A stretch of 58,680 bases of DNA from a virus (IMGVR_UViG_3300034683_000215:1-58680); one strand, 5' to 3'; positions 17,351 to 34,506 are shown, counted from the stretch's first letter. The notes: a model not told the origin generated them from the letters alone. A program made the numbers and translations.

Positions 17351-17693
17351 GTGTATGGCAAGTGCCTACACAGAACGTAAATAATAAACGCAGTTTAACA
17401 TGAAAGATAATATGAGTGATAATTTTGATATAAACGTAAAAATGCCAGTTTGGAAGAGCATAAAATTGCGTTTATTTAGTGTTGGCAACCAAAGGGAACT
17501 GTTATTAGATTTTCTTTATTGGAGAGAAAAAGAAATACACCCAGCAGACGCTAACAAAATAATAAATAACTATTTAGAGCAGAAAAAATCTAATAATAGT
17601 TGCTAACTTAAATAATAACACTAAAGATTGAAATTATGACAAAAGAAAACAAAAAAGACGAACGGGCATTTGCTATACACGGTGTTATGCCCC
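17351..17693. repeat. attC-like site interrupted by a nested cassette
   Basis: Arms GTGTATGGCAAGTGCC (17351) and GGCATTTGCTATACAC (17665), then GGT-GTTATGC. Confidence 0.7.
17400..17606 (+). CDS. Cassette hypothetical protein (nested cassette)
   Basis: Reads through the arm and GTT (LRLFSVGNQRELL); its stop TAA lies in GCTAAC. Confidence 0.65.
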   Translation: MKDNMSDNFDINVKMPVWKSIKLRLFSVGNQRELLLDFLYWREKEIHPADANKIINNYLEQKKSNNSC

Positions 17694-18040
17694 GTTATTT
17701 TTATCCAAATGGTGATGAGGTAAAAGAAAATGATATTGTGTTTTACTCCGAGAGCAAAAGCGCAGGTGATGACTTCCATTATGCAGACAGTATAAACCTA
17801 ATAGTAAAGCGAGGTAATGAATTAAAAGCAAAAGCTTTTGTGATTACGATGGATAACGCACAAACATTCCAAGATTATGAAGAACCTGAACACAATATGG
17901 TTTCTTTGGAATACGGACAGAATATGTTCAACAAAAATGGTGTGCTACCTGACTTTGAGAAAATAGGTGAATATCCAAAAGATAAAGAAATGTTGACTGC
18001 AAAATATGCCCAAGACCATTTTTGTTTTAATGGGGCATAA
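17636..18040 (+). CDS. Cassette hypothetical protein
   Basis: Starts in the attC-like loop (AFAIHGVMPR spans the arm); stop in GCATAAC. Confidence 0.75.
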   Translation: MTKENKKDERAFAIHGVMPRYFYPNGDEVKENDIVFYSESKSAGDDFHYADSINLIVKRGNELKAKAFVITMDNAQTFQDYEEPEHNMVSLEYGQNMFNKNGVLPDFEKIGEYPKDKEMLTAKYAQDHFCFNGA

Positions 18041-18096
18041 CGGTAAATATAAGAAGCGTGGAGCGTAGCGGAATGATTTTTATATATTGTTAGCTG
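18032..18096. repeat. Short attC-like site
   Basis: GCATAAC...ATATAAGAAGCGT-loop-ATGATTTTTATAT...GTTAGCT. Confidence 0.65.
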
Positions 18097-18133
18097 GCGA
18101 AGCGTACTGTTTAAAAATTTAAAACGAAATATT

Positions 18134-18352
18134 ATGTTGAAAAACTATTTACAAGATTTAGAAGAAATGAGCGAGCGTAATGCAGAATTTAGCGAGTATT
18201 ACCATATGTTATTAAATGGCATTGATGATCTTGAAGGCAATGACAAACCACTATTTGTTTATAGCCTGATGAACGCCATTAGAGATATTGGCTATGAGAA
18301 CGGAAAGCGAGCGGCAAACGAAGCAATGAAGAAATTTTTAAATTGCAGCTAA
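18134..18352 (+). CDS. Cassette hypothetical protein
   Basis: 72 aa; stop in CAGCTAAC. Confidence 0.7.
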   Translation: MLKNYLQDLEEMSERNAEFSEYYHMLLNGIDDLEGNDKPLFVYSLMNAIRDIGYENGKRAANEAMKKFLNCS

Positions 18353-18613
18353 CGGACAGGTATATGAGCCGTGCGGATTAACCTACTAACAATTGAACGA
18401 GGTACACAGTAATAATTTTAAAATATTTTTAGGGATGGAAAAAATAAAAGTAAAAATACCAGAAAAATGTAAAGATTGTGTTTACGTGAATAAAAAAGGA
18501 AATTGTTGGGCTTTGAAAGATAAATGCAACCCAAACAGTATGAATTGTGATTATAGGAAAGATGAAGAGGCGAGCTACAAACGCAAGCATGGCTTATATA
18601 CCATGTTGTAGCA
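18346..18613. repeat. attC-like site with a gene in its loop
   Basis: Arms GGTATATGAGCCGTGC (18359) and GCATGGCTTATATACC (18587). Confidence 0.75.
18435..18611 (+). CDS. Small Cys-rich protein encoded within an attC-like loop
   Basis: MEKIKVKIPEKCKDC...C...C...C; ATG 18435 is in frame with the ORF-track call. Confidence 0.55.
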   Translation: MEKIKVKIPEKCKDCVYVNKKGNCWALKDKCNPNSMNCDYRKDEEASYKRKHGLYTML

Positions 18614-18624
18614 TTGTTTTAATG

Positions 18625-18903
18625 TGCTACAACGTAAAAGTGTATGGTGTCGGTTGCACTTCAAAAACCTACTGACCTACGAACGAGTGATAAACCTCCA
18701 CGTTTACGAGCGTGGCAAAACTTAAATAAAATGAGAAGACATACACAAACGATTGAAGAATGTGAACACTGTGGAAAAGTATTTGAAGCAGGAGAAGATT
18801 ACTGGAAAGATGCACATAATAAATGCTACTGTGTTGATAATGCGTGTGGGTGGGAAGATGACGATACGAGTGACAGCAACTGCACTATACACGGTGTTAG
18901 CAA
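18625..18903. repeat. attC-like site with an extrahelical base
   Basis: GTGTATGGTG(T)CGGTTGC (18640) and GCAACTGCACTATACAC (18876). Confidence 0.75.
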
Positions 18904-18997
18904 TCCGTTAAGTTGCGATGGTTGCAAATACAACGGTACGACTAATGACGACCTTTGCGTAACTTGCGGAGATACATATAAAAACAAAGCAACTTAA
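18731..18997 (+). CDS. Cys-rich (zinc-finger-like) cassette protein
   Basis: CEHC...CYC, then SNCTIHGVSN, then CDGC...CVTC; likely start at 18731. Confidence 0.6.
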   Translation: MRRHTQTIEECEHCGKVFEAGEDYWKDAHNKCYCVDNACGWEDDDTSDSNCTIHGVSNPLSCDGCKYNGTTNDDLCVTCGDTYKNKAT

Positions 18998-19000
18998 TTG

Positions 19001-19104
19001 TTGGTAACGTTTTGCGTATATACGAGGTACGCCAAACGATAAATTTAAAATTATAAACAAATGCTTGTAGGCGTATCTTGTATATACGCTGTTAGCACCA
19101 ATAC
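19001..19104. repeat. attC-like site
   Basis: GCGTATATACGAGGTACGCC (19014) and GGCGTATCTTGTATATACGC (19070), flanked by TAAC and GTTAGC. Confidence 0.8.
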
Positions 19105-19112
19105 GGATTATT

Positions 19113-19355
19113 ATGGAAGATTTTAGATTTACAACAATAGAACCGCTTTTAACAAATGCAGACGCAATGGATTGGTTTTTAAATGAACATTTTTATGAAG
19201 TGTTTGATGAAGATGCAATTTTTCTGAATTACAATGATGGTTATGCAGAAGTGATTGATGGTAAAGGACAAAAATGGGGATTACACGCAAGTGGTGATGG
19301 TGATTTTGTTAGTCACAGAATTAGATTTGAAGCACTAACGAAGTATTGGTGCTAA
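19113..19355 (+). CDS. Cassette hypothetical acidic protein
   Basis: 80 aa; ends in GTATTGGTGCTAA. Confidence 0.7.
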   Translation: MEDFRFTTIEPLLTNADAMDWFLNEHFYEVFDEDAIFLNYNDGYAEVIDGKGQKWGLHASGDGDFVSHRIRFEALTKYWC

Positions 19356-19374
19356 AGAAAAAATAAATATAAAA

Positions 19375-19725
19375 ATGAGTTTAACTGTACGATTAATAGA
19401 AAATAATAAATGCCTCTTTGAGGCAAATATTACACATAATTTAATCCCCATGGCTAAAAAAGTAGGTGTTTACGAAGCATGTTGGCGACCCTACAAAATA
19501 TACGATATAGAAGATGATTTAGAAGATTCGGTTGAAGTAAAAGCCAGAGATATTATATATTTTCTGGTAAGAGGTGTGGTAAAATTAAAGCGTTCTCCCG
19601 AAACTTTCAGAAAATACGATTCCCCTAATGGCTGGGGAACATATGATAATTTTCTACCCTGGTTGGAAAGTTATCTAGCTGCTTGTGAAAAACACCCTAA
19701 TGCAATAATCAAAGTTTATAGATAA
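19375..19725 (+). CDS. Phage hypothetical protein
   Basis: ANITHNL...YDSPNGWGTY motifs; coupled to the next gene. Confidence 0.7.
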   Translation: MSLTVRLIENNKCLFEANITHNLIPMAKKVGVYEACWRPYKIYDIEDDLEDSVEVKARDIIYFLVRGVVKLKRSPETFRKYDSPNGWGTYDNFLPWLESYLAACEKHPNAIIKVYR

Positions 19726-20609
19726 TGGATATAAAAAAAACAAGAAAAGGTAACCTAGGGTCCAGCGACGCCAAGATGGTTGCCAAAATAGCAAAACTTG
19801 GAAAAATTTCTAAATCTGATAAATTTAGAATAGCAGAAGTATTGGGCTTGTACGAAACGCCAAATGTTTATACATCTGCTATGAGGGAGGGACACGAGGT
19901 TGAGGAGTTGTTTTATCAGGCCATCTTGCAAAATTTTAGCGGGGCCAAAAGCAATCCTATTTTTGTCAGCGTAATAAAGCCAAAGCATTTCAATATAATC
20001 AACCACATAGATGTAGAAGTTGAGAAAGAAGATAAGGTGCTTTGGTTTGAGCATAAGGCTACAAAGCACCAATCAATTGATGAGGTAGAAGAGGAATATA
20101 AGTGGCAGCTCCAATGGCATATGATGCTCTTGAAAGAACGTGCTTGTGAGAAAGGCTACTCATTAAAATTAGCATGGTTTAACACCACGACGAAAGAGTT
20201 TTCTTATAAGGAAATTCAAGAAGTCCCCGAAATGATAGAGCATCTTAAGAAGGGGATTGAAATAATCGACCAAGCGTGCGAAAAATTTGAATGGGAAAAG
20301 CCTGAGGAATTACCAGTTGAATATTTGGCAGCCCCTGTGCAGAAAAAGGTGGAAGAGGTAGCGTCAGCGTTGAGGGAGATAGATAATCTCAACAAAAAAG
20401 TAGAAGAATTCAAGAAAAAATTATTAGATATTATGTTGTCTAATAATATAAAATCAATCAAAAATGATTATATCTCGATAACACTAGTTCCAGAGAGCGA
20501 AACGGTTACATTTGACGCTAAAAAATTCAAAGCCGAGAATAAAGAATTATCGGAGAAATACAGCAAGGTAGTAAAGAAAAAACCATACATCATGATCAAA
20601 ACGAAATGA
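19725..20609 (+). CDS. YqaJ / lambda-exonuclease-like recombination nuclease
   Basis: LGSSD, AMREGHEVE, HID...FEHK and YKWQLQW motifs; adjacent to recT. Confidence 0.8.
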   Translation: MDIKKTRKGNLGSSDAKMVAKIAKLGKISKSDKFRIAEVLGLYETPNVYTSAMREGHEVEELFYQAILQNFSGAKSNPIFVSVIKPKHFNIINHIDVEVEKEDKVLWFEHKATKHQSIDEVEEEYKWQLQWHMMLLKERACEKGYSLKLAWFNTTTKEFSYKEIQEVPEMIEHLKKGIEIIDQACEKFEWEKPEELPVEYLAAPVQKKVEEVASALREIDNLNKKVEEFKKKLLDIMLSNNIKSIKNDYISITLVPESETVTFDAKKFKAENKELSEKYSKVVKKKPYIMIKTK

Positions 20610-21358
20610 ACGAGATAAAGAAATTCTTTAAGCAGGACGAGGTGGAAGAAAAGTTTCGCCTTCTGTTAGGCGAAAGGGCACCTCAATTTTTGACCTCGGT
20701 TATGCAAGCCGTGTCGGAAAACTATGATTTGCAATATGTGGACCCTAAGTCCATTTATGGTGCAGCAGTAACAGCAGCCCTTATTAACCTGCCAATCAAC
20801 AAAAATTTGGGATTTGCCCATATAGTTCCATATAAAGGTGTGGCACAATTCCAAATGGGTTGGAAGGGTTTTGTTCAGTTGGCTCATAGGACTAATCAAT
20901 TTGTAAGGATAAACCCTACGGATGTGATGGAAGGAGAGATAATCGAGCGAGATCGGCTAACGGGTGATATGAAATTTAAGTGGCTGCCCGATTCGGAAAG
21001 AAAAGGGCTTGAACCGATAGGGTATGTTTCATATTTTCGACTGGTCAATGGGTTTGAAAGCACCTTCTATATGACTTCAGAAGAGCTCGATGCTCATGCT
21101 AAAAAATATTCAGAGGCTTATAGAAATAACAATGGACCTTGGGTGAATGATAAACCCGCCATGTGCAGGAAAACCGTTATTAAATTAAACCTAAGCAAGA
21201 ACGCACCTCTATCTTTGGATATGCAAAGAGCAATAATGTTCGACCAAGGAGTAACGTTCGACGGAGAAACGGTGGAATACGTGGATAATCCTGAAATAGA
21301 GATTATCGACGAGAAACAAAAAGCCATCGCTGAGAAACTGAATGGCATATTAGATTAA
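20606..21358 (+). CDS. recT: RecT-family single-strand annealing protein
   Basis: LGFAHIVPY, AQFQMGWKGFVQLA, PW....AMCRKTV. Confidence 0.9.
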   Translation: MNEIKKFFKQDEVEEKFRLLLGERAPQFLTSVMQAVSENYDLQYVDPKSIYGAAVTAALINLPINKNLGFAHIVPYKGVAQFQMGWKGFVQLAHRTNQFVRINPTDVMEGEIIERDRLTGDMKFKWLPDSERKGLEPIGYVSYFRLVNGFESTFYMTSEELDAHAKKYSEAYRNNNGPWVNDKPAMCRKTVIKLNLSKNAPLSLDMQRAIMFDQGVTFDGETVEYVDNPEIEIIDEKQKAIAEKLNGILD

Positions 21359-21399
21359 CTTTTCTCAAGATTTATTCGTATTTTTGTAGTATAAAAATA

Positions 21400-21687
21400 A
21401 TGGTTATGGAAATCACATTAAACAAAGATGAGTTAAGGTACATCAGAGAAGGGCTTGATCTATTAGATAAAAAGCCCATAAAAATAAATAAGCATTTGTC
21501 GATGATGTACAATTTTGACCAGGAAAATTTTTGCTATTCGTTCTTTATCGGAATGGATTGTGTAGATGAACTAATATCAGGTGACGTATTATTATACGTA
21601 AACGAGCTCATTGAGGCTATTTTTAGCCCAAATAAGCCTCGAATTTCTAATTTAGGTAGTTATCATAGATCAGTAAATTTTAAGTGA
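21400..21687 (+). CDS. Hypothetical protein
   Basis: ORF after a TATTTTTG promoter. Confidence 0.55.
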   Translation: MVMEITLNKDELRYIREGLDLLDKKPIKINKHLSMMYNFDQENFCYSFFIGMDCVDELISGDVLLYVNELIEAIFSPNKPRISNLGSYHRSVNFK

Positions 21688-21839
21688 AAATATGGAAGAA
21701 AAAAGGCTAAAAGAAGAAATAATTAAGTTGCTATATGAATACGGACAAGCAACATTAGTAACCAAGGCATTCGTCCCGGAAATAGATTTTGTCCCTTTAG
21801 CAGATGATTTAGTAAATCTTTTTAAATTATTTAAAGAAA

Positions 21840-22139
21840 ATGAACAAAAAGATTCTCTATAAGTTAGCCGAGGCAATAGCCGATAGTAGCTTTCCTGACG
21901 GGACGTATGAATATGAGGTGGGAAGATTATTATTTCGAGTTACGTTAGATGTTGACGTAATCGTAATTGACCCAGGAAGTTATTACACACCTCCTGAATA
22001 TCAAGCAGCCATTTCGGTGAGAGAAGTTGAGTGTTATATCGGTGGGCATCTAGTCGAATTGGATTATTATGTGGCAGAGGCATTAGAATACATTCTTGTT
22101 AAGGATTATGGTTGTACATACTTAATCGATGAATTATGA
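21840..22139 (+). CDS. Hypothetical acidic protein
   Basis: GSYYTPPEY motif; overlapping operon layout. Confidence 0.6.
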   Translation: MNKKILYKLAEAIADSSFPDGTYEYEVGRLLFRVTLDVDVIVIDPGSYYTPPEYQAAISVREVECYIGGHLVELDYYVAEALEYILVKDYGCTYLIDEL

Positions 22140-22438
22140 AAATATATTTAGAGCAGCCCGATTTAGAGGTTATGTCAGAATCTGCCGTTAAGCAGTTATT
22201 TGGGTTAGAAAAATTCGTAACTATAACAGTTTCATCTGATGACCTCGTAATCGACCTGTGGTTATATGTGAACCCAAATGTCAGTATAGATGACGAAGAA
22301 TCCAAGTATCTTTTCATGGGTTATAGCGCCTATATTGCTTATGTCGAAGTTGATGTAAGTAATATAGACGACTTATTCAATTTAATCGTAAATAAGATAT
22401 GGGAAAGTTCAAACGAGGAGATAGAGTGGCCGTGCTAG
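22136..22438 (+). CDS. Hypothetical acidic protein
   Basis: ATGA coupling with the previous gene. Confidence 0.6.
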   Translation: MKIYLEQPDLEVMSESAVKQLFGLEKFVTITVSSDDLVIDLWLYVNPNVSIDDEESKYLFMGYSAYIAYVEVDVSNIDDLFNLIVNKIWESSNEEIEWPC

Positions 22439-22656
22439 AGGGCTGCTCATCATGGATGAAGAAACACGACCTTTGGATGAGAGAAATGGGAAAATCTATC
22501 GATTTCATGGAAGGGGAAGTTGTCGTAGATGCATCTCATTTAAAGGGTGATGATGCTTATTATGGCGTCGATCTAGGTTTTAAGTTTTTAGTTGGTATAA
22601 ATCCTAAATTTCTAAAATTATGTTCACCAGAAGAAAAGTCAAAAGAGAACTTGTAG
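22399..22656 (+). CDS. Hypothetical protein (SH3-like KFKRGDRV start)
   Basis: ORF track and N-terminal motif. Confidence 0.55.
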   Translation: MGKFKRGDRVAVLEGCSSWMKKHDLWMREMGKSIDFMEGEVVVDASHLKGDDAYYGVDLGFKFLVGINPKFLKLCSPEEKSKENL

Positions 22657-22937
22657 GCCGTCTAAAAAATAAAGGCTACCAAGTGGTTATCGTGTCTCAT
22701 ATTTACAAGACTGTAGATGTAATAGCCTATAACACCTATCGGGACCTTTACCTAAAGGTGAAAATAGGTCGATTAAAGAAAAGAGACATTCAGTTTTATT
22801 TGAAAATGCGAGCAGAGGGGAAATATTTTTCTTATATCCGCTGCTTGGATGATATTGAAAAGGTTATAAGGCACAATGTTATCCCATTAAGGGACGACCA
22901 TGAAAGGCAAATAAAACGTTTTATAAATAACTTGTAA
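22620..22937 (+). CDS. VRR-NUC / resolvase-like PD-(D/E)XK protein (divergent)
   Basis: LKNKGYQV...DVIA....LYLKVK...Q pattern; the catalytic Glu appears replaced. Confidence 0.4.
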   Translation: MFTRRKVKRELVGRLKNKGYQVVIVSHIYKTVDVIAYNTYRDLYLKVKIGRLKKRDIQFYLKMRAEGKYFSYIRCLDDIEKVIRHNVIPLRDDHERQIKRFINNL

Positions 22938-22940
22938 ATC

Positions 22941-23390
22941 ATGATAAGAGAAATTGCTTTAACGGATGATAATCCGCTGGAATATCTATCTATAAATATA
23001 TTTCAGCTGCCTAAGTCCGATTATAAGGTGGTCGGATATTTAGGGGAAGTTTTAAACTTCGTAAATAGAAAGTCAGCAGCAAAAAGTTATTTCGATTTGC
23101 TTTTTGCTTCGGAGGCCGAAAAAAGATTTATATTCGATTATTTGGAAAGGTTACGCTTAATCGAAAGGATAGGGGAGGAATATAGCGTAACAAAAGAAGG
23201 GAATGAGTTAATAAATGCGCTTAACGAGTTATACATTCGGCATGTAGGTATTTGCTCCTCCTGCAATGAAAAACTTGGGCCAATTAGGTTTAACGAGTAC
23301 CTATCAACGCATGAAGCCGTGTATGAGTTTATGTGCGACGAATGCGCCGATATGTATGAGGAATTACTGTATGGCTGGACGAGCGTTTAA
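22941..23390 (+). CDS. wHTH plus zinc-finger hypothetical protein
   Basis: YSVTKEG wing, CSSC...CDEC. Confidence 0.5.
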   Translation: MIREIALTDDNPLEYLSINIFQLPKSDYKVVGYLGEVLNFVNRKSAAKSYFDLLFASEAEKRFIFDYLERLRLIERIGEEYSVTKEGNELINALNELYIRHVGICSSCNEKLGPIRFNEYLSTHEAVYEFMCDECADMYEELLYGWTSV

Positions 23391-23718
23391 CTTTACCTAC
23401 TTGAGAAGCGTATTAAGGAGAGCCTGGATGCGCTCACCTGAGCGAGGAATTGCCTTACAAAGGGCATTCGTAGAAAAACGCCCAAATGAAAAAGGTCGCT
23501 TGGTAAAGATGTACATGTGCGCATATTGCGGTAAAGTATTACCAGCCAAAGATGTGCAGATAGATCATATTAAAAATGTGGGGACGCTAAAAGATTTTGA
23601 TGACCTGCCCGATTTTGTCAGAAATTTATTCTGCGATGCTTCGGAATTGCAGGTGTTATGCAAGGAGTGCCATAAAGAAAAGACAAAAAAAGAGAGATAT
23701 GGTAAACGTAGCTCTTGA
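23374..23718 (+). CDS. HNH endonuclease
   Basis: CAYC...QIDHI...LQVLCKECHKEKT; likely start at MAGRAF. Confidence 0.85.
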   Translation, partial: AGRAFNFTYLRSVLRRAWMRSPERGIALQRAFVEKRPNEKGRLVKMYMCAYCGKVLPAKDVQIDHIKNVGTLKDFDDLPDFVRNLFCDASELQVLCKECHKEKTKKERYGKRSS

Positions 23719-25544: not shown

Positions 25545-26735
25545 TTAGATGAATTTTTTAACATAGTTAATACAGTCAGCATTTTTCTTTGAAATAACCC
25601 AACCGGGTTTTTTACCTCCCTCAAAATTCAAAAATGGATTGAACTTTGCTTTAAATTCCTTGAGCTTTCCCTTGTGTTTTTTAGTTTCGCCAAAAATCGC
25701 GAAACTTTTTTCTGAGTAATCAATTAAAACAAGTTCCTTTTTAGTAGGCAAATCAACCTCTTTAGTTGATTTTTTTGGTTGTTTTGTTTCTTGTTTCTTT
25801 GTTTCTTGTTGTTTTGTTTCCTGCTGTTTTTTTGTTTCCATATTTGTAAAGTTTAAAGGTTCAAACAAAAAAGGTTTTTCATATTCATCAAAATAAATAG
25901 TATCGACTTTACACTTTTTAAGCAAATCGAGCGAAATTCCAATACGCTCTTCAGGCCCGATGATAGGCATTATTACACCTAGTAACTCTTCGGTTATATT
26001 TACCTCCTCTACCTTAATCGGTAACGTTTCTGTATGATCTGAATTTTGCAGGTAGCACTCTTTTTTATAAATATCGTAGTAAACGACATTGAACTTTCCT
26101 ATAGATTTTAGTTCGTTTGCCCTTTTTATAATTTGCTTGATAGGCAAGGTTATTTTTTGTTTATAATATTTCGATTTTGACAAATAGGAGTCATAAACTG
26201 GCATTTTTACGCCTTGTTCATAGCACGAAAAAACAATTTCATTTAACTTAAGAAAAATACGTTTTTCGGTTTTAAAAATTTCCACCTCCTTATCAATAGG
26301 AAGCTTTAAAAAGCTTTTCAGTTCGTCTATATGAACCGAAAATTCATCGGCGAACTGACAACCCTCCCGAACCACTAAAACAGATGAATTTGTAATTAAT
26401 ATCGTACCTTCTTTGAATAAGATTGAATAATATAAAGTTTTTAGGCTTTTTGTGTTGCTAATACTAGAATAATACTCAATAAACTTTAAATCATTAGTTG
26501 TTAAGACGCCTAATTTTTTGGCGTCTGAGGGCAATAGGTTTAATTCCGGGTATTCATCAACCGAAAAGTTTAATTTTACTCCGGCAGAGAAAACGCCCTC
26601 CTCCGTGGAGGACGTTTTTTGGTAAACTTGATAGCCTAATGTATCAACGTAAACGTAACCGTTTTTTATACAATAGGTATTATCAAGCAAAGGTAAATTC
26701 TTGTTTCTCTTGCAAAGTTTTTTGATTGTTTCCAT
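25545..26735 (-). CDS. Clamp-like N-terminal region, QETKK linker and small C-terminal domain
   Basis: DEYPEL, ITNSSVL and Q.VKMPVY resemble beta-clamp modules; QETKQ/QETKK repeats; IDYSEKSFAIFGETK...GWV domain. Confidence 0.5.
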   Translation of the reverse strand: METIKKLCKRNKNLPLLDNTYCIKNGYVYVDTLGYQVYQKTSSTEEGVFSAGVKLNFSVDEYPELNLLPSDAKKLGVLTTNDLKFIEYYSSISNTKSLKTLYYSILFKEGTILITNSSVLVVREGCQFADEFSVHIDELKSFLKLPIDKEVEIFKTEKRIFLKLNEIVFSCYEQGVKMPVYDSYLSKSKYYKQKITLPIKQIIKRANELKSIGKFNVVYYDIYKKECYLQNSDHTETLPIKVEEVNITEELLGVIMPIIGPEERIGISLDLLKKCKVDTIYFDEYEKPFLFEPLNFTNMETKKQQETKQQETKKQETKQPKKSTKEVDLPTKKELVLIDYSEKSFAIFGETKKHKGKLKEFKAKFNPFLNFEGGKKPGWVISKKNADCINYVKKFI

Positions 26736-27395: not shown

Positions 27396-27399
27396 AGTT

Positions 27400-27594: not shown

Positions 27595-27650
27595 TTTCGT
27601 TTTGTTTTTTTAAACCGCGTAAAATTTAATGGTTAACAATAAGAAAACGA

Positions 27651-27983: not shown

Positions 27984-28091
27984 AGCAATTATTTTAATTG
28001 TTAATATGATAGTTCAAAGTTACAACGATAATAATCGAAATGCAAGTTTTTTTCAAAAAATTTTTGGCGAAAACTTAAATTTAGAAACTTT

Positions 28092-28460
28092 CTAAATAAG
28101 CGCGTCTAAAATTTTTCGGGCTTTTGCAGTTAGCTTGTTACTCTTATCTATATAACCTAACTGCCTTAACTCGTATAACCGTTGATGTAGTATCCTACTA
28201 GATAGATACGAGACAAGACTATAAGGATCAACCCCCATGCTGATTATTAACATTAATATAAGATGATACATAGCTATATTATTACTATATATTATTCCGT
28301 ATATCTTCGACAGCATTATTAAAGCATCTTGTGAGTAACTGTCATTATTTCCTGACAAATTGGCCGAATGTATTACAACGTTAATAATTTCCTTACTCAG
28401 CAGCTGTTTTGTTGTCAACGAACGCGGCGCGTCTATTCTTTTTTTACCCTTTTTTGTCAT
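28092..28460 (-). CDS. Hypothetical wHTH-like protein
   Basis: LRQLGYI...LTAKA C-terminus. Confidence 0.5.
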   Translation of the reverse strand: MTKKGKKRIDAPRSLTTKQLLSKEIINVVIHSANLSGNNDSYSQDALIMLSKIYGIIYSNNIAMYHLILMLIISMGVDPYSLVSYLSSRILHQRLYELRQLGYIDKSNKLTAKARKILDALI

Positions 28461-28576
28461 TTTTTAGCCCTTATTTTGAACGATTCTAAATAAGCGGTAT
28501 AATACCACTACCTGGACAAAGATACAAAAAAAAGCCCTAAAAGGGCTTAAAAACGATATTTTTTATGGTTAAAAAA

Positions 28577-28921
28577 TTATTGTTCTAGTATTGAGCCGCG
28601 CTCTATATACTCTAATTGTCGGCTCCAGTTGCTCCAAATTTCATTAGGCTCAATTCGTTTCCCTAATGAATAAATCTTAATATTTGGATCCATATCAAAC
28701 AAAATTTCAAAAAAACGTCCTATTGCGTAATAGGAAGGAAAAGGGATTTTACGCCCTGAGTGGCTAACCCTACTACCAGGGCGGCCGCTAATGGACTTGA
28801 GCCTAATGTTTACCCACTTACCCCGCTGCGAGGTAAGAATCGTGAAGTTGTTTTCTTTGTACTCCTTGTTTAGGCGTCGAAGAGCCCTTTGGAGTTGTTT
28901 TTCTGTTGCATTCGTTCTCAT
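28577..28921 (-). CDS. Hypothetical basic protein
   Basis: 114 aa ORF. Confidence 0.6.
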   Translation of the reverse strand: MRTNATEKQLQRALRRLNKEYKENNFTILTSQRGKWVNIRLKSISGRPGSRVSHSGRKIPFPSYYAIGRFFEILFDMDPNIKIYSLGKRIEPNEIWSNWSRQLEYIERGSILEQ

Positions 28922-29218
28922 TGCTCTTATTTTTGTTGATCGTTATCGATTAATTCTGCAACTGAATATGCCAAGAGGAACATGCTAATTATAGCACCGA
29001 TTAGCCCAAACCATCCAAAAAATGATGGTTCGTCGTGTATCAATGCAACCACAAAACAAATTACGAAGGTTGCCAAATAGAATACAGGTTTCATGATTTT
29101 AATTTTAATTGGTTAACGATACAAATATAAAAAAACAATTTACGCAACACAAGTTTTTTTCAATCTTTTTTTCCTTTATCCTTGTTATTTATATTTAGTC
29201 TAAATAGCCCAAGCAAGA

Positions 29219-29249
29219 AAGGCAAGGCCTAAAATTTAGGCCTTGCCTT
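29219..29249. terminator. Palindromic hairpin / terminator
   Basis: AAGGCAAGGCCTAAA-A-TTTAGGCCTTGCCTT. Confidence 0.6.
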
Positions 29250-29510
29250 TTTGCTAACAACATTATCAACCGCCATGGCGCGGTTAATGGCTTTATATCA
29301 TACTTTTGCGCCGCCCTTTTTCGTCCTGGACTTTTTGAGGTGGGTGGGGTTTTGGGATTTTGACAGCCCCCGAGCAAACACCCCCCACTAAAAACACGGT
29401 AATACCCCCGATTGTTTATGTTTACAAATTTGTCGATGTAATTGTGATAAAATGTTTTATTTGATTTTAAGTTTAAAGTGTTTTGTTGTTATTTGGATGT
29501 TAGCCACAAT

Positions 29511-30389
29511 TTAAAAAAGATGCGGCATTACTTCTTTGATACGGTTAATCGTAAAAAATGAAAGTCGTTTAAAATCAATTGTTGGATTTTTGAACTCTTT
29601 TACAAAGTTCCAGCTTTCTTCTTTTACAAGGCAGTAAAAAACAGTATTCAAAAGTCGTGGGATCTGTTTACTACTCCAACCGTTTTCAGTCTCAATTTTT
29701 GCCAATTCCTTTTCAATTAAAGCCTTTGTTACAAACTTATTTACTATTTCTTCTTCAATAATTTTGTTTTCTTTAATCTCAGTTACATCGCATTTGGCGT
29801 GTTTTGCCTTAAATTCGTTTTTAACAATCTTTGCCCAAACTACACGCCCAAATCTGTTTTTGTAATTGTAGTTTTTAATTACAATACCTTCGCCAGTTCC
29901 TTGTCCATCTTCAATTAAGTACACATTCTTTTCTAATTGGTTTACTAATATTTCGTATGTAGGGTTCTCAATCTTGCAAATTGGCGGGATGTATTCAATA
30001 CCAAATTCATCGAGCATTACTTTATATGCCTCGTAAGGCAAATAGTTTTCGCCATCCATTACGTCAAACACATAAAAGTTATTCCAAGCCGTTTTTTGGT
30101 AAGTTTTAAGCGTATGCGGCACAAGCCATTCGCCAAATAATCGCAAGTTTGGGTATTTAGCAAAAAATAAGTAAAACATTTCTTGCTGTAAAGCCCAATT
30201 ATAAAAACCTGCATTATCGTTCTCAACTTCTAATTGCCTGTTTCGGCTACCAGCCCGTAAGCCATTTTCAAACCATAATTGAGAATTTGTTCCGTCAATT
30301 TTTGGGAATATGTAGCACATACCCATTTCAATTCCGTTTGTTTCAGTAGTTCCTAATCGTTCTACGTGTTGATACTTTGTAAATTCCAT
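29511..30389 (-). CDS. RNA ligase (Rnl2-like), cassette-borne
   Basis: Nucleotidyltransferase motifs KIDGTN, FGEW, FYVFDV, EGIVIK and AKIV. Confidence 0.85.
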   Translation of the reverse strand: MEFTKYQHVERLGTTETNGIEMGMCYIFPKIDGTNSQLWFENGLRAGSRNRQLEVENDNAGFYNWALQQEMFYLFFAKYPNLRLFGEWLVPHTLKTYQKTAWNNFYVFDVMDGENYLPYEAYKVMLDEFGIEYIPPICKIENPTYEILVNQLEKNVYLIEDGQGTGEGIVIKNYNYKNRFGRVVWAKIVKNEFKAKHAKCDVTEIKENKIIEEEIVNKFVTKALIEKELAKIETENGWSSKQIPRLLNTVFYCLVKEESWNFVKEFKNPTIDFKRLSFFTINRIKEVMPHLF

Positions 30390-30423
30390 ATTTATCTGAT
30401 TTTGTGATTAATAAAATAAAAAC

Positions 30424-30557
30424 TGTGGCTAACAATGTGTATAATTAATTGGGGTTGTAGTGCAGTTTTCAGCGTCCAACCTCGCCCCAGCGTTCGTGTA
30501 TTTTGATTGGTTCGTGCCACGTAATCCCCAACTAATCATACACGTAACGTTAGCAAT
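30424..30557. repeat. attC-like site
   Basis: GTGTATAATTAATTGGGG (30437) and CCCCAACTAATCATACAC (30526). Confidence 0.8.
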
Positions 30558-30852
30558 CAGTGTCTTGCTCACAATTTTTATAAGCTGGATTACATTCTTC
30601 ACATTTATACTCCCATTTAGCATACTGCCACTTACAATTTCCGCAATCCACCACCGCTTCGCTATTGCTAACATGCTGTATATTGCAGTTGCTATCCGTG
30701 TCGGAAGTCAACCCGGCCCACAATTCTAACATACGAACATCATATTTTAGTCGTTCAACTTCATCTCTGTTTCCAGAAGCCCTGTTTTCCATCAGCGTAA
30801 CTGTATCACGTAAATCTTTTATTACATTAATAATACTTCTCATATCTGCCAT
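30550..30852 (-). CDS. Cassette protein: coiled coil, arm-encoded linker, Cys-rich tail
   Basis: DSNCNIQHVSNS spans the arm; CGNC...CEEC tail. Confidence 0.65.
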   Translation of the reverse strand: MADMRSIINVIKDLRDTVTLMENRASGNRDEVERLKYDVRMLELWAGLTSDTDSNCNIQHVSNSEAVVDCGNCKWQYAKWEYKCEECNPAYKNCEQDTDC

Positions 30853-30940
30853 CGCACGTCTAATTTTTAAAGTTTATACTGTTATTTAAATTTGTGCTGT
30901 TTCTGTCGGCAACCGACAACATACAGCTACGACGTAGTTG
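30664..30940. repeat. attC-like site with a gene start in its loop
   Basis: GCTGTATATTGCAGTTGC (30675) and GCAACCGACAACATACAGC (30909). Confidence 0.75.
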
Positions 30941-30943
30941 TAA

Positions 30944-31207
30944 TTAAAAACTTTTCAGCATATTTTCAGCATCATCTCTGGTATTCCAACTAACTTCGCC
31001 ATTATCAAACTCTTCCACTAACTTAGAAAGAAAAGTTTTTAAATGTTCGCTTCGCCAACTAACAGCAGGTATATTCAAATTTTTTACTTGCTGTTGTGCA
31101 AAATAATCAGCTAACTCTTTATACTGAGATTGCTTTAATTTTATTCTTGTTATTGACATTTCGCCAAACTCAAAAATATGGTTTTCCCCTTCTTTGTAAT
31201 GTTTCAT
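30944..31207 (-). CDS. Cassette hypothetical protein
   Basis: KNLNIPAVSWRSE spans arm and core. Confidence 0.65.
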   Translation of the reverse strand: MKHYKEGENHIFEFGEMSITRIKLKQSQYKELADYFAQQQVKNLNIPAVSWRSEHLKTFLSKLVEEFDNGEVSWNTRDDAENMLKSF

Positions 31208-31264
31208 ATCGTTTGTGTTTTAAATTCGTAAAAAATCAAAATATACCTGCGCTACGTTGGGGGC
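31056..31264. repeat. attC-like site with a gene start in its loop
   Basis: GCAGGTATATT (31065) and AATATACCTGC (31240), then GTTGGGGGC. Confidence 0.7.
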
Positions 31265-31266
31265 AA

Positions 31267-31497
31267 TTAAAGCACTTCGCAATCACGCAAATAAAATGAT
31301 TTATGGTTATTTACACCTTCCAAATCAACAATGCAACCATTATCTTCCCATCTTGCGTAATATGCAGCTAATTGTCCATAATCAAACATTAATTTAGCAA
31401 TAATGCCATTTGGTAATTTTAATTTACTTGTTTCGTAATAAATTTTATTTCCTCTTACATCTTTTTCGCCAGTGTACAATCCTTTTACATTTTCCAT
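31267..31497 (-). CDS. Cassette protein, YopX C-terminal-like fragment
   Basis: YTGEKDVRGNKIY resembles the YopX QYTGLKDKNG.EIYEGD motif. Confidence 0.5.
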   Translation of the reverse strand: MENVKGLYTGEKDVRGNKIYYETSKLKLPNGIIAKLMFDYGQLAAYYARWEDNGCIVDLEGVNNHKSFYLRDCEVL

Positions 31498-31500
31498 TTT

Positions 31501-31686
31501 TCAATCAATTAAAAGTGCATAACAATGTATAAAATTAATGCGCTTGGTTATGTTAGTGCTTAATTCAAAGTTTACTGTTTCCTTTTGTACCTCAACATCA
31601 TTGATGTATGATTTACCATTTCTCTCTGAATAATAACCATACACCCACTTACCTTGTTTGTCTAGTCCTTTGTAACTTGTTAGCAT
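31501..31686 (-). CDS. YopX N-terminal-like fragment
   Basis: YKGLDKQGKWVYGYY...V..ETV. Confidence 0.45.
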   Translation of the reverse strand: MLTSYKGLDKQGKWVYGYYSERNGKSYINDVEVQKETVNFELSTNITKRINFIHCYALLID

Positions 31687-31906
31687 TTTTTCTAGATTTA
31701 AGGTTAATAATTGGTTTGTCTATTCCTTTGGCTCTTAATGCTGCTTGTATTTCCAGAGCCTCTTTAATGCTATCTGTATATAGTCCAGCAATATAAAATC
31801 TGTATTTAGAAGGTGGTAAATACTTTAAACTAATAAGATACACCACAAAGCAAATAAATAGGACTAATGGCAGCATATACATAATTAATATTAATATATC
31901 TAACAT
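31649..31906 (-). CDS. Hypothetical membrane protein
   Basis: N-terminal TM segment. Confidence 0.45.
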   Translation of the reverse strand: MLDILILIMYMLPLVLFICFVVYLISLKYLPPSKYRFYIAGLYTDSIKEALEIQAALRAKGIDKPIINLKSRKNANKLQRTRQTR

Positions 31907-32060
31907 ACTTTAGCCCTCCCTAAATTTGTTTTCTAATGTTAAATAACCATTCCTGACATTCATAGGTTGTATCTCCTACTTGATAGCTGAATTTTCCCAT
32001 TTTATTAATGTTTTTTGTTATTAAATCGCACTAAATATATCTGCATCCCGTTGGGGGCAA

Positions 32061-32243
32061 TTAATAGTACTCGATAACCACCACATTTATGGTGATATAA
32101 TCTTCTGAAGAGTTTGCATCCCATAATTCAGTTTTTCTAACTGTATAGGCTTTCATGTAGTCAAACTCTCCGCGCTGCTGAATAAAAACCTCTTTTTCTG
32201 GGTCTTGTTTTTTCAGCTCTTCGATTAGTTCTTTTACTTTCAT
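32061..32243 (-). CDS. Cassette hypothetical protein (MKVKELIEEL family)
   Basis: N-terminus duplicated at 33934-34008. Confidence 0.65.
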   Translation of the reverse strand: MKVKELIEELKKQDPEKEVFIQQRGEFDYMKAYTVRKTELWDANSSEDYITINVVVIEYY

Positions 32244-32352
32244 ATGGTTATAAATTGTTGTTATCAACAAGCGGAAGAACATTCGAGCATTTAATCAAGG
32301 TTAGTACGCAACGCACCATAATAAATAATTTTGCCCACCCGCTTTTGGTTTT

Positions 32353-33147
32353 TCAAACCAATTCGGGTATTTGCTCTCGTAAATATTTGTAAATTTTCCA
32401 CGTTTGTATTTTTGGTGCACTAATGCAAGGGTATAAATTTTTCCAATCTGTGTTTTTCATTAATTGCATCACTTTGGCTTTATACGTTTGGTTGTTCACC
32501 TTAATGTAAATTTCCTGTGCAAATTGTCCTACAAAGTCAACTTCTTTTCCAACATTGCCCCAAGCACACATTCCAAAATCGTAATCGGTAGGTATTGGGT
32601 AAGTTCCGTTTCTTCTATACTCCATTACTGTAACATCATTAAGCTTATAGTCAATCGGCTTGGTGTTAAGTCCTTTTTCAGGTCGCTTATAAATATTAAA
32701 GCTGCATTGTAATTTCACACCACAATATTCCACTATCGGCAGTAGTTCGCTGTAAATCATATCAAACTCATACATTTGTTGGTTGTTGTTGTACTGGCTT
32801 GCAGGTAGTATAAATGCAATGTAGTCGCCTTGCTTTACAGCTTTCTTATAAAACTTAACACTTAGTGTGTTTCGTGTTCCAAATGGTGGGTTTCCAATAA
32901 CACATCTACCTTTAAAGTATGGTAAATCTAATTCAAGGTAGTTTGCTTGCTCAATGTTTTCTGCTTCGGGTTCAATATCAAATGCAAGGTAGTTATCATC
33001 CAAGTAAGGTAAAAACGCACCCGCTCCTGCACTTGGTTCAAGCCATTCAGTTATATTTTCTTCTCCAATTACTTCTTTTGTTTTCTTCACACAATATTCT
33101 GCTAAATCGGCAGGTGTGTAGTATTTATCTAAATTTATTTTTGCCAT
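32353..33147 (-). CDS. DNA adenine methyltransferase (gamma class), cassette-borne
   Basis: KYYTP, LEPSAGAGAF, IGNPPFG. Confidence 0.85.
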   Translation of the reverse strand: MAKINLDKYYTPADLAEYCVKKTKEVIGEENITEWLEPSAGAGAFLPYLDDNYLAFDIEPEAENIEQANYLELDLPYFKGRCVIGNPPFGTRNTLSVKFYKKAVKQGDYIAFILPASQYNNNQQMYEFDMIYSELLPIVEYCGVKLQCSFNIYKRPEKGLNTKPIDYKLNDVTVMEYRRNGTYPIPTDYDFGMCAWGNVGKEVDFVGQFAQEIYIKVNNQTYKAKVMQLMKNTDWKNLYPCISAPKIQTWKIYKYLREQIPELV

Positions 33148-33205
33148 CCCTAAAAATTATTTATTATTACTTCTGTTCATTTAATCAAGTTCCGTGCTGC
33201 CGCCA

Positions 33206-33306
33206 GTTGGTAACAAGTGGTATAAAACAAAACCTCTGGTTGCTTAGTCTCATTGTTCGGGCTATGGTGGTGTCGGTTTCGATTTCATACCACAAGCCCG
33301 TTATGG
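33206..33306. repeat. attC-like site
   Basis: GTGGTATAAAACAAAACC (33217) and GGTTTCGATTTCATACCAC (33275), then GTTATGG. Confidence 0.7.
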
Positions 33307-33390
33307 TTATTATTAATTTCAGTTGTCAAGTAATCCTTTACAACTGCTTTTTTATCCGCTTCAATTCTTATACGTGGAACGTTGTGTGTA

Positions 33391-33544
33391 ATAAAAATGC
33401 TCGTCTCTCCGAGCCGTCACACCTAAGCTAACTGGTACTACATACCATAGGCGGCATTGGTTATCTCCGTTCATCCTACAGTATCACCGTTATGCGTGCC
33501 TCCCTGTGTCCCACACGCTCATCTTCTGCCACCGCATTTTTACA
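33391..33544 (-). ncRNA. Candidate structured RNA in an ORF-less cassette
   Basis: GC-rich, closed by AAAAATGC/GCATTTTT; 3' end GUGACG-GCUCG-GAGAGA-CGAGC hairpin; TATATTTG promoter at 33620-33627 on -. Confidence 0.45.
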
Positions 33545-33772
33545 TACACACAACAATGTATATAATTAATAGCGGTGTTAGTGCAATATTTTAAAGAACT
33601 ACTTTTTGTAAACTTTATGCAAATATATGAAATTCATAGCATTAAATCTGCTACTGTTCGCAAGTAGTAATAACTCGTTTCTGTGTCACCAGTTAGGTGC
33701 ATTGCTACCCACCGCTTTTTACCTTTATGTTCTTTGAGTCTTACCCACTTATACATGTATTAGCAATCATTG

Positions 33773-33988
33773 CTATAAATCAATATCAATTTTAGGCTTG
33801 TATTTACTAATATGAAAAGTTACAGGAATTGTTTTACCATCAAGGTCAAGCAACGAATTGCTAACATGCTGTAATACGGCATTATTTTTTACTACCTTTT
33901 CCTGTTCACATTCATTCCATACTTTTATTAAAGCCTCTTTTTCTGGGTCTTGTTTTTTCAGCTCTTCGATTAGTTCTTTTACTTTCAT
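33773..33988 (-). CDS. Chimeric cassette protein
   Basis: MKVKELIEELKKQDPEKE joined to NAVLQHVSNS. Confidence 0.55.
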   Translation of the reverse strand: MKVKELIEELKKQDPEKEALIKVWNECEQEKVVKNNAVLQHVSNSLLDLDGKTIPVTFHISKYKPKIDIDL

Positions 33989-34021
33989 ATGGTTAAAAAT
34001 TGTTGTTAGGCACAATAAAAA

Positions 34022-34231
34022 TTACTTACGTTCTCGTTCCAATATTTCATTCTGTTTTTCTAGCAAAGTATTTCTATACTTCAACTCTATCTGTATATTT
34101 ATTAGCAAAATGCTAATCAATATTCCAAAAACAAGCATTGTCATAAAAATAAAAAATGTTCCCATAAATCGTAATTTTAAAAGCGTACTAACCTTATACT
34201 TTGCCGTTAGCGGTAATTTTCCATAAACCAC
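34022..34231 (-). CDS. Small membrane protein (start uncertain)
   Basis: TM segment plus a short coiled coil. Confidence 0.45.
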   Translation of the reverse strand: MVYGKLPLTAKYKVSTLLKLRFMGTFFIFMTMLVFGILISILLINIQIELKYRNTLLEKQNEILERERK

Positions 34232-34473
34232 TTAACACCTGCTATAAATGCTTCCTGTTTGTCGTACCAATTTACGACAACTTCCATAGTATCTTCGTTT
34301 GTGTTATCATCATTAGATTTATCGCTATAATTTATAGCAGCAGTTTCAATTTCATTTTCGGAAGGAAAACTACCGCTAACAGCAAATAAATCCAATAACT
34401 CACTTTCTGCATCATTGAAAGATAAATCACCAGATTTAATTCTATTTAGTATTTGTTTAATTTTTTCTTTCAT
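34207..34473 (-). CDS. Cassette hypothetical protein
   Basis: LDLFAVSGS spans the arm; AFIAGVKW motif. Confidence 0.7.
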   Translation of the reverse strand: MKEKIKQILNRIKSGDLSFNDAESELLDLFAVSGSFPSENEIETAAINYSDKSNDDNTNEDTMEVVVNWYDKQEAFIAGVKWFMENYR

Positions 34474-34506
34474 ATCGTTGCTGTATTTATTTGCGTTCCG
34501 TTAAGT
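34371..34506. repeat. attC-like site at the array boundary
   Basis: GCAAATAAAT (34382) and ATTTATTTGC (34485), then GTTCC-GTTAAG. Confidence 0.65.

Follow-up and report, generated by a model that had tools for sequence, protein, structure and literature searches.

Hairpin sites of an integrase-less phage, with genes in inverted polarity, probably belong to an integron-like system of Bacteroidota

Introduction

A virus contig of 58,680 bases with direct terminal repeats (IMGVR_UViG_3300034683_000215, the whole of which is the window analyzed here) carries two clusters of inverted repeats among small genes, one at 17.37–19.10 kb on the plus strand and one at 30.42–34.51 kb on the minus strand. 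Each complete repeat is framed by AAC and GTT and would fold into a hairpin, and open reading frames (ORFs) begin inside the loops or run through the 3′ arms. The locus thus raises the question of what these elements are: recombination sites, signals in the messenger RNA, patches of homology or accidents of coding. A preliminary description of the region had taken them for integron attC sites of reverse polarity, with the genes on the strand that folds.

That lytic phages can carry attC clusters is already published. Qi et al. 2023 (PMC9892861) describe such clusters in virulent phages, P12002L included, and report that IntI1 recombined five of six attC sites from three virulent phages, one P12002L site being recombined as the bottom strand only. 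Here we propose that the clusters in the window probably belong to an integron-like system of Bacteroidota, as hairpin sites that recombine in single-stranded form, and that in this integrase-less phage they bound small accessory-gene cassettes with inverted polarity.

Results

A hairpin family shared by phages and Bacteroidota

Read on the local coding strand, a site consists of a TAAC-G box, a spacer of about 5 nucleotides (nt), a 5′ stem arm containing G/N-GTATG, an A-rich loop (36–250 nt in the window), a return arm containing TTATAC, 3 nt and a T-GTTAG box. The two clusters hold at least ten such hairpin sites plus half-sites. Among 50 loci encoding relatives of the RNA ligase of this phage, equivalent hairpins lie upstream of the gene, with the same outer boxes and different stems. 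A covariance model, R1, was built from the phage copies. In the alignment of its 12 seed copies, 84.4% of the cells are paired and 14 of the 22 pairs have changed on both sides; none of 500 shuffles showed covariation as high, and slid controls were 25–44% paired. In the window R1 has six matches at E<0.01, all on the local coding strand, and the two best copies score 61 and 111 bits in sense versus about 20 bits in antisense. Across the 50 ligase loci there are 25 matches in 5 loci; these copies are 86.0% paired, keep AAC throughout (25/25) and the three letters of GTT in 24, 25 and 24 of 25, and retain two G·U pairs in 24/25 and 19/25.

The family extends well beyond phages. A 20-base gapped pattern taken from the conserved columns, for which we estimate about 17 chance matches at equal base frequencies, occurs in at least 120 stretches of a species-genome collection, and the same pattern in at least 119 stretches of a viral collection. 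Among the 80 bacterial matches listed, almost all are from Bacteroidota or allied phyla, and R1 gives 170 matches in these 80 loci, at least one in each, in same-strand arrays that reach 13 copies in 8 kb (locus L054). The 149 distinct bacterial copies are 88.8% paired, with compensatory changes at 19 of 22 pairs and the same two G·U pairs in 139/149 and 136/149; the six letters of AAC...GTT are kept in 148–150 of 150 copies. The 16-pair upper helix is 89–92% paired, the spacer is asymmetric (5 nt in the 5′ half, 3 nt in the 3′ half), and the loops span 10–152 nt, with medians of 79 and 76 nt in bacterial and phage copies, respectively. Conservation continues into the flanks of both groups (91 viral and 80 bacterial copies), beyond the reach of R1: AATTG stands 8 nt before TAACG, and a G followed by a T-run stands 7 nt after GTTA. 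These flank motifs may be part of the footprint of an enzyme. Because the 149 bacterial copies share both the structure and the G·U pairs, the phage element is, on sequence grounds, the cassette-bounding repeat of an integron-like system of Bacteroidota.

Could such repeats have arisen by chance, or through a peptide motif shared by paralogous small proteins, with no function of their own? It is true that several 3′ arms lie inside ORFs with similar peptides, and that the hexamer GTTAGC, which we tried as a marker and abandoned, is not enriched by itself (one strand of the window has 24 copies and the other 21, where base composition would give an estimated 20 or so each). Many copies are non-coding, however (sites G, D and H below), the covariation exceeds that of every shuffle, and the same element recurs in hundreds of bacterial and viral contigs; we therefore regard this explanation as extremely improbable.

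Other candidates and procedures were also discarded. A duplex-energy scan of every AAC...GTT pair returned 118 and 91 candidates genome-wide, which is too permissive, and a stricter version missed known copies; these scans were replaced by R1. An in-frame ORF from the conserved ATG of the 5′ arm to the TAG of GTTAG is open in site H and closed in the other 123-nt copies. For a self-cleaving ribozyme, intron, retron or CRISPR-repeat mimic there was no Rfam match and no motif that fits by eye. Indeed, Rfam 15 had no match in the window at gathering score, and none of its five weak matches (E up to 5) falls on an element. A blastn search of the 133-nt site H against isolated phages gave no meaningful match.

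The bacterial arrays examined stand beside a tyrosine recombinase

In four of four bacterial arrays (three genomes searched whole), the strongest match to an integron-integrase profile sits at the start of the array. Thus, in genome G006 a recombinase gene at 467755–468522 of contig 14 accompanies an array from 470723 to 539932 (33 matches over about 70 kb), and one at 154509–155318 of contig 9 accompanies an array from 142376 to 153205; the corresponding pairs are 272687–273481 and 274102 to 286480 in contig 1 of G007, and 34948–35763 and 37666 to 51483 in contig 12 of G009. The recombinase gene has the same orientation as the cassette genes and points its 3′ end at the array. In the three arrays whose layout was followed, each ORF has a single site, of about 133 nt, only a few bases behind it. 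Two of three array enzymes pass the NF040815 model ('site-specific tyrosine recombinase/integron integrase'), and the best match of the L173 enzyme among solved structures is the Vibrio integrase IntI4 (2a3v). The Flavobacteriaceae arrays (loci L054, L118, L107 and L171–L176) start beside a tyrosine recombinase of 368–386 amino acids.

According to the IntegronFinder 2.0 preprint, almost only lone integrases are detected in Bacteroidetes. This fits sites that the standard model misses, and the Bacteroidota arrays may be overlooked by current integron tools.

The earlier identification of the phage elements as integron attC sites is supported, with one correction. The same element forms recombinase-linked, same-strand arrays and breaks at AAC; the sites, on the other hand, have no extrahelical bases, and the associated enzyme lacks the insertion typical of IntI. 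For these two reasons it is safer to file them as attC-like than as canonical attC, with another strand marker and another enzyme subtype.

Genes lie on the folding strand in phages

Polarity was scored from ORFs of at least 60 amino acids within 700 nt of a pattern match, a 2:1 majority being required. In the viral collection, the genes run on the folding strand in 72 of 91 contigs and on the opposite strand in none; among 83 bacterial loci, they run on the folding strand in 4 and opposite to it in 61, the remaining copies of both groups being unclear. In three bacterial arrays, likewise, the cassette ORFs lie opposite to the R1 strand. Three of the four bacterial exceptions (L052, L063 and L066) are among the best scorers against the phage-built model, and two of them, L052 and L066, are contigs of 2.2 and 2.9 kb that may be phage DNA binned into a genome. 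Cultured phages agree with the viral collection: R1 matches at E<0.002 in Cellulophaga phage phi19:3 (two) and Polaribacter phage P12002L (seven) all lie on the strand of the surrounding annotated genes. The family members of phi19:3 (L298) are at 15664–16165 and those of P12002L (L299) at 29.2–39.3 kb, where they flank four methyltransferase genes and a Mom-like gene. According to Ghaly et al. 2021 and to Loot et al. 2017 (PMC5371416), the folding strand of integron sites is the non-coding 'bottom' strand. The folding strand is thus non-coding in the bacterial arrays and coding in the phages, and the reversed cassette polarity proposed in the preliminary description is borne out.

The sites also meet the genes at both ends. 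An ORF of at least 40 codons ends on the TAA of TAACG in 26 of 76 phage copies (4 and 0 in two control frames) and in 6 of 66 bacterial copies (6 and 4). Conversely, an ORF that starts at a loop ATG and continues through GTT for at least 40 codons is found in the GTT frame of 29 of the 76 phage copies (5 and 10 in the other frames) and of 2 of the 66 bacterial copies (3 and 2). The ligase ORF in L001 can start only at the loop ATG, and gp033 of phi19:3 (15731–16036), as annotated in GenBank, has its start inside a loop and its end on the TAACG that comes next. In related phages, the genes that start in or at a site include C5 and N6/N4 DNA methyltransferases. All these observations suggest that the site doubles as leader and coding sequence, as had been claimed. 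The recurring peptides that prompted this claim (AIHGVMPR, CTIHGVSN, CNIQHVSNS, VLQHVSNS, NIPAVSWRS, LFAVSGS and LFSVGNQ) are all present in the ORF translations, the GTT always being read as Val. The accompanying statement that the loops are enlarged and hold start codons needs to be narrowed. Start codons are found in the loops of sites B, F, I, J and P, that of site G has only a 20-codon ORF and that of site H none; a loop of about 75 nt is the family norm, and truly enlarged loops (140–250 nt) occur only in F, I and J.

A hairpin that always lies in sense orientation brings up the main rival explanation, namely that in phages the element, having been taken over from host arrays, works mainly as a stable hairpin in the mRNA, by exposing a start codon in an open, A-rich loop, insulating cistrons or marking a point of processing or termination, DNA recombination being incidental. 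The absence of any opposite-strand copy among the viral contigs speaks for this explanation, G·U is a normal RNA pair, the phage loops are richer in A than the bacterial ones (0.42 vs 0.33) and often hold the start of a long ORF, and 44 of 91 phage copies have a T-run behind GTTAG. Yet bacterial copies, whose other strand is transcribed, have the T-run just as often (51/80) and show the flank consensus as well; the T-run is thus not phage-specific, and an intrinsic terminator was dropped as a candidate. The phage copies moreover keep just those features that a recombinase, but not an RNA, would require, with near-invariant AAC and GTT, the same two wobbles and the same spacers as the bacterial copies; no Rfam family matches them; and cassette-precise variants running from AAC to AAC exist as DNA, as described next. 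A predominant RNA role is, in our judgment, unlikely.

Homology and metagenomic variants break at AAC

Elements with 450-nt flanks were compared all against all by BLAST. Where a homology block extends over the downstream flank, its start falls at −2 to 0 relative to the first A of AAC; this holds for 21 viral and 8 bacterial high-scoring segment pairs, for example between L086 and L122 (95.6% over 575 nt). The crossover end is the 5′ AAC in the phage-sense orientation, and therefore the hairpin belongs to the gene downstream. In the orientation of the model, the unit is the hairpin plus what follows it: a canonical cassette read backwards in bacteria, and a hairpin leader plus gene in phages.

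Logan contigs of sequencing runs X4–X7 were then placed on 17–35 kb of the window. The 17.3–19.4 kb region is almost completely present in four runs, with parts in others. Three joints run exactly from AAC to AAC. One in X5 (17373>17605, skipping 17374–17604) removes the site B cassette; one in X4 (18037>18350, skipping 18038–18349) has six shared letters and its right end at site E; and another in X4 (18630>19006, skipping 18631–19005) removes the site F cassette, with five shared letters. The three share only 3–6 letters at the joint, within which the exact bond is not resolvable. Forms with and without a cassette have comparable depths (29.8 vs 27.3 and 60.6 vs 19.8). X4 contigs also end at sites, namely at 18043, 19006, 30543 and 30933. 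Furthermore, an X6 contig, from a third study, carries 18631–19014 between different flanks, and an X5 contig covers 17605–18035, the site C cassette, alone with other flanks.

The same data bear on a third alternative, that the dispersed repeats are mere homology patches for the phage's own RecT and exonuclease, that modules are shuffled in the way proposed for promoter-stem-loop cassettes of T4-type phages, and that no site-specific recombinase is at work in the phage. The phage does encode RecT and a RecE-like exonuclease (19725–21358) and has no recombinase gene in the contig, breakpoints are found at the 3′ arm too, and leaders are common to unrelated genes. But the three exact joints at AAC, with their 3–6 identical letters, are too short for homologous exchange, a strict strand rule and conserved wobbles are unneeded for double-strand homology, and homologs of the array recombinase are found in related phages. 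We consider it quite unlikely that homology accounts for the elements.

Strand bias rests on two conserved wobbles

Each element has two to four G·T pairs on the coding strand, with A·C mismatches opposite, as had been noted; in the family, two G·U pairs five positions apart are fixed in sense, where the other strand would have C·A mismatches. Folding both strands of each site, a check put forward in the preliminary description, gave a divided answer. Arm-to-arm duplexes are stronger on the coding strand in eight of eight elements, by 4–12 kcal/mol, and their z-scores against 500 shuffles lie between −3.5 and −10, except for site D (−1.8). Whole-segment energies do not discriminate, because the G-rich coding strand folds better throughout the genome: random segments favor the sense strand by −3.4 ± 5.5 kcal/mol (130 nt) and −7.6 ± 8.6 kcal/mol (270 nt), and the sense–antisense differences of the elements, −4 to −16 kcal/mol with one of +6 (site K2, whose segment folds better in antisense by +6.2 kcal/mol), are within this range. 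Whole-segment energy was accordingly dropped as strand evidence. The strand bias rests on position-specific conserved G·T pairs, not on total free energy.

Five of the seven sites singled out earlier as best paired are confirmed, those at 17383 (B), 18640 (F), 19014 (G), 30437 (H) and 30675 (I). The other two were misjudged: at 17351 there is only a small local hairpin upstream of site B, and 18359 belongs to a 5′ half-site, E, which has no partner arm and no strand preference (sense −9.7 vs antisense −10.4 kcal/mol).

Sites of the plus-strand cluster

All sites of the first cluster are on the plus strand. Site B (17369..17490; R1 27.3 bits, E 8e-4) has its AAC at 17374–17376 and its GTT at 17481–17483. 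The ATG at 17400 in its loop starts a 68-amino-acid ORF that reads through the 3′ arm as LFSVGNQ, and its arm duplex is worth −16.3 kcal/mol, versus −12.1 kcal/mol in antisense. Site C (17602..17692), recognized by its sequence, is degenerate and has lost the 5′ arm (R1 10.2 bits, not significant); its AAC box (17605–17607) doubles as the stop of ORF 17400–17606, its loop holds an ATG at 17636, and the arm with GTT at 17684–17686 is read as AIHGVMPR. Site D (18034..18098; 30.8 bits) has a short loop. Its TAA (18038–18040) is the stop of ORF 17636–18040, and ORF 18134–18352 then follows in frame with its GTT. The latter ORF stops on the TAA of TAACG in half-site E (18347..18380), likewise recognized by sequence and devoid of a 3′ arm.

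Site F (18628..18902; AAC 18631–18633, GTT 18896–18898) has a loop of about 240 nt and an arm duplex of −26.8 vs −18.2 kcal/mol (z −4.4). Its ORF, which starts at the in-loop ATG 18731 or in the arm at 18644 and ends at 18997, reads CTIHGVSN through the 3′ arm. Site G (19001..19100; AAC 19006–19008, GTT 19091–19093) combines a 36-nt loop with arms of 20 nt that are 90% complementary; it scores 60.7 bits versus 20.6 in antisense, its duplex −38.8 versus −27.2 kcal/mol, and its 20-codon loop ORF ends just past the ATG at 19113.

Sites of the minus-strand cluster

The second cluster lies on the minus strand throughout. Site H (30424..30556), with 123 nt from AAC to GTTAG, is the R1 match of 111.3 bits (19.9 in antisense). 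It stands upstream of the RNA ligase gene (29511–30389), and ORF 30550–30852 stops on the TAA of its TAACG box. The same site-plus-leader module, about 83% identical, precedes unrelated genes in L192 and L194, which makes three genes in three phages; such reuse resembles the homogeneity of sites within chromosomal arrays. Site I (30660..30937) has a long loop and a degenerate 5′ box (arm duplex −28.0 vs −20.5 kcal/mol, z −3.5), and the 100-amino-acid ORF 30550–30852 that starts in its loop reads CNIQHVSNS. Site J (31052..31262) has a 140-nt loop, a duplex of −36.4 kcal/mol (z −9.6) and 71% identity to L001 2972–3173; ORF 30944–31207 starts in the loop and reads NIPAVSWRS. At 33 nt and 79%, site J is the longest inverted repeat within 400 nt outside an AT-rich block at 44.85 kb.

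A 3′-arm remnant at 31514..31554 belongs to the direct-repeat family D9 (12.4 bits with R1, not significant), and site L (32033..32064) is a 5′ half-site, part of direct repeat D15 (84%), whose box and arm resemble those of site J. Site K2 (33205..33307; 29.9 bits) lies upstream of a methyltransferase-like ORF (32353–33147); the leader after its GTT is common to the site that precedes the ligase gene in L015. Site N (33857..33880), inside ORF 33773–34015 (VLQHVSNS), is a 3′-arm remnant with no 5′ partner; it has the 17-nt repeat D13 in common with site I and folds about equally on both strands (−23.6 vs −22.6 kcal/mol). A crossover box at 34195..34226, whose TAA is the stop of ORF 34207–34473, forms inverted repeat I6 (23 nt, 91%) together with the far box of site P, the 23-nt duplex between them being worth −37.7 kcal/mol (z −10); the two boxes are therefore the two ends of one cassette. 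Site P (34371..34507; 22.8 bits, E 0.008) starts the 88-amino-acid ORF 34207–34473 in its loop, which reads LFAVSGS.

Several further repeats were seen in and around this cluster. An 89-nt direct repeat, 93% identical, links 32182–32270 with 33927–34015; it spans the leader and the first 20-odd codons of ORFs 32061–32282 and 33773–34015, which then diverge, and looks like a recent duplication or exchange of a module. The leader and trailer of the methyltransferase-like gene (33130–33215 and 32260–32363) are 75–77% identical to L015 9919–10007 and 10926–11028, which there surround an RNA ligase gene: one slot, different gene. Short G+C-rich perfect palindromes followed by T-runs at 29218–29250 and 28524–28547 resemble common intrinsic terminators and have no relation to the cassette sites.

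Phage genome and gene context

The phage encodes a tail protein of 2128 amino acids, the RecE-like exonuclease and RecT, a primase-polymerase, the RNA ligase, a C5 methyltransferase and a sliding clamp. A PHROGs scan of 20 ORFs in the cassette region assigned no function to 16 of them; the ligase gene and the methyltransferase-like ORF (both on the minus strand) are each preceded by a cassette site. By its RNA ligase (55% identity), the closest cultured relative is Cellulophaga phage phi19:3, and therefore the host is probably a member of the Flavobacteriaceae.

Genes run on the plus strand up to 24.4 kb, on the minus strand from 24.5 to about 45.9 kb and on the plus strand thereafter, and GC skew matches this pattern along the contig. 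A block of overlapping AT-rich palindromic repeats at 44847–44934, where gene direction and skew switch, is a candidate replication origin. The C5 methyltransferase ORF (36222–37199) matches only positions 1–176 of the 324-position Pfam profile and is overlapped in another frame by a 254-amino-acid ORF (36293–37057), which could mean that the frame has shifted, that the gene is split or that its target-recognition part is unusual. Finally, 3–4 tandem 15-nt units at 25772–25831, inside a 396-amino-acid ORF (25545–26735), encode a repeated K/Q/E/T-rich peptide.

The recombinase would act in trans

An integrase beside the array, the mark of a complete integron, is found in the bacterial relatives (4/4 arrays) and not in the window. 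The phage clusters correspond to 'attC sites lacking an integrase' as defined by Qi et al. 2023, that is, at least two close sites in a replicon that has no integrase. The phage contig contains no homolog of the array enzyme or of its relative in locus L192. Homologs do occur in the phage gene pool, in 3 of 131 viral loci; two are full-length (L192 6288–7121, minus strand, and L202 7446–8249, plus strand) and 38–44% identical to bacterial array enzymes, so that complete phage-borne systems seem to exist. The tyrosine recombinase gp036 of phi19:3 was considered as an array-type enzyme and set aside as unrelated (best E 2.7). Because the phage contig has no such homolog, yet hosts and the phage gene pool do, we infer that the recombinase for the phage sites must act in trans.

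Discussion

How might such a system operate? The strand that folds, marked by the fixed G·T wobbles and the asymmetric spacers of 5 and 3 nt, is the canonical non-coding 'bottom' strand in bacteria and the coding strand in the phage. A phage cassette would begin with the crossover in TAAC-G, continue with the hairpin and leader, often with a start codon in the loop, and the ORF, and end at the next TAA|C, which would often supply the stop codon. A recombinase provided in trans, either an integrase-like enzyme of the host or the homolog encoded by a few related phages, would excise, insert or swap cassettes at the AAC triplet.

[quoted passage not shown] Loot et al. [quoted passage not shown] The phage orientation would correspond to what these authors call 'evolvable', the orientation of high turnover. 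The GC-skew pattern allows, but does not prove, that the phage genes are co-oriented with replication.

Having put this forward, we would note a number of observations that weigh against it. First, no tyrosine, serine or Y1 recombinase (PF00589, PF00239 and PF01797) was detected in the phage contig, and PF00589 was found in none of five related element-bearing records. Second, the resemblance to classical integrons is incomplete: no bulge column of the helices is occupied in more than 4 of 150 bacterial copies or 1 of 25 phage copies, which leaves the sites without extrahelical bases; the array enzymes score 173–204 bits with TIGR02249, below the integron-integrase cut-off of 265; and residues 200–247 of IntI4, the IntI-specific insertion, have no counterpart in the array enzyme. 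Third, gene orientation is unclear in 19 of 91 viral and 18 of 83 bacterial copies, and the whole-segment folding energies, computed with RNA and DNA parameters, do not rise above the genome background. Fourth, some homology blocks form a second, smaller group that begins at the 3′ arm (+108 to +110; 18 viral high-scoring segment pairs), and leaders downstream of GTT are common to different genes; these two observations suggest that ordinary homologous exchange at the repeats also occurs and that exchange is not limited to the AAC crossover. Fifth, not all variants are exact. The X4 joint 30553>30933 (skipping 30554–30932, site I) has ends a few nucleotides off the triplets, and the X4 joint 33901>34206 is a replacement, beginning right after the AAC at 34206. 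Each joint is a single Logan contig with a shorter side of 24–30 letters, contigs cannot show rare forms, and X4 and the probable source sample belong to one study. Some cassettes are covered by contigs from RNA libraries (X7), a cover that is not a sign of transcription, just as its absence elsewhere carries no information.

A broader proposal, to which we would give slightly less than an even chance, is that Bacteroidota and their phages share a largely uncharted integron-like system. It would have an insertion-less, Xer-like recombinase, wobble-marked sites without extrahelical bases and arrays of up to tens of kilobases. In phages it would show mirror polarity, each cassette bringing a hairpin leader with a start codon and ending on the crossover TAA; the recombinogenic strand would lie on the template of the lagging strand, and accessory and anti-defence genes would be swapped rapidly during infection by an enzyme acting in trans. 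In a limited literature search we found no description of a systematic mirror polarity, of loop starts combined with TAA stops, or of a link to large Bacteroidota arrays with an insertion-less recombinase.

If correct, the proposal has several consequences. The hyperplastic small-gene regions of many Bacteroidota phages would follow a defined recombination grammar rather than random mosaicism, and phage accessory genes could be delimited by a simple rule (crossover, hairpin and leader, ORF, next TAA|C). It would offer a handle on how counter-defence genes, those for methyltransferases among them, pass between phages and hosts, and would reveal a large class of chromosomal cassette arrays, seemingly missed by integron finders, in a major marine and gut phylum. 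The mirror polarity would also be a natural test of whether the orientation of sites relative to replication sets cassette turnover. Cultured pairs for such work exist in Cellulophaga baltica with phi19:3 and Polaribacter with P12002L.

Comparison with known systems

The nearest precedent is the phage attC clusters of Qi et al. 2023. In both, the hairpin has inverted AAC...GTT cores, which an unpaired spacer separates from a second paired box, and ends in a loop that varies, and both bound small cassettes, methyltransferase cargo among them, in integrase-less lytic phages. P12002L, with its seven R1 matches, is one of the three phages tested in that paper, although the site active with IntI1 need not be among these matches. 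Two differences stand out. The present sites have no extrahelical bases and mark the strand by two G·T wobbles and the 5/3-nt spacers, and their genes are on the folding strand, often starting in the loop, whereas that paper notes only 'divergent directions' for P12002L.

The bacterial relatives resemble sedentary chromosomal integrons in their long same-strand arrays of one ORF and one site (~133 nt) beside a tyrosine recombinase, and in the homogeneity of the site sequences within a lineage. The repeats of Vibrio cholerae belong to such large sedentary chromosomal integrons and have sites of about 125 nt. The Bacteroidota arrays differ in that the recombinase is encoded on the same strand as the cassette genes, the 3′ end of its gene being the one nearer the array, and in that the enzyme lacks the IntI insertion.

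Among phages, the promoter-early stem-loop modules of T4-type phages reportedly combine a promoter with a terminator and recombine by homology. They are similar in being repeated stem-loops beside small novel ORFs of hyperplastic regions, and in presumably driving shuffling; unlike them, the present sites are kin to bacterial recombinase-linked arrays and break at a defined triplet. The CTX phage, for its part, is said to have a folded single-strand attachment site that is used by the XerCD recombinases of the host. By analogy, both would be cases of a phage hairpin in single-stranded DNA that mimics the core site of a host Xer-type enzyme and needs no phage recombinase. The CTX phage, however, has one site that integrates a single-stranded genome, whereas here many sites bound cassettes inside a double-stranded phage genome.

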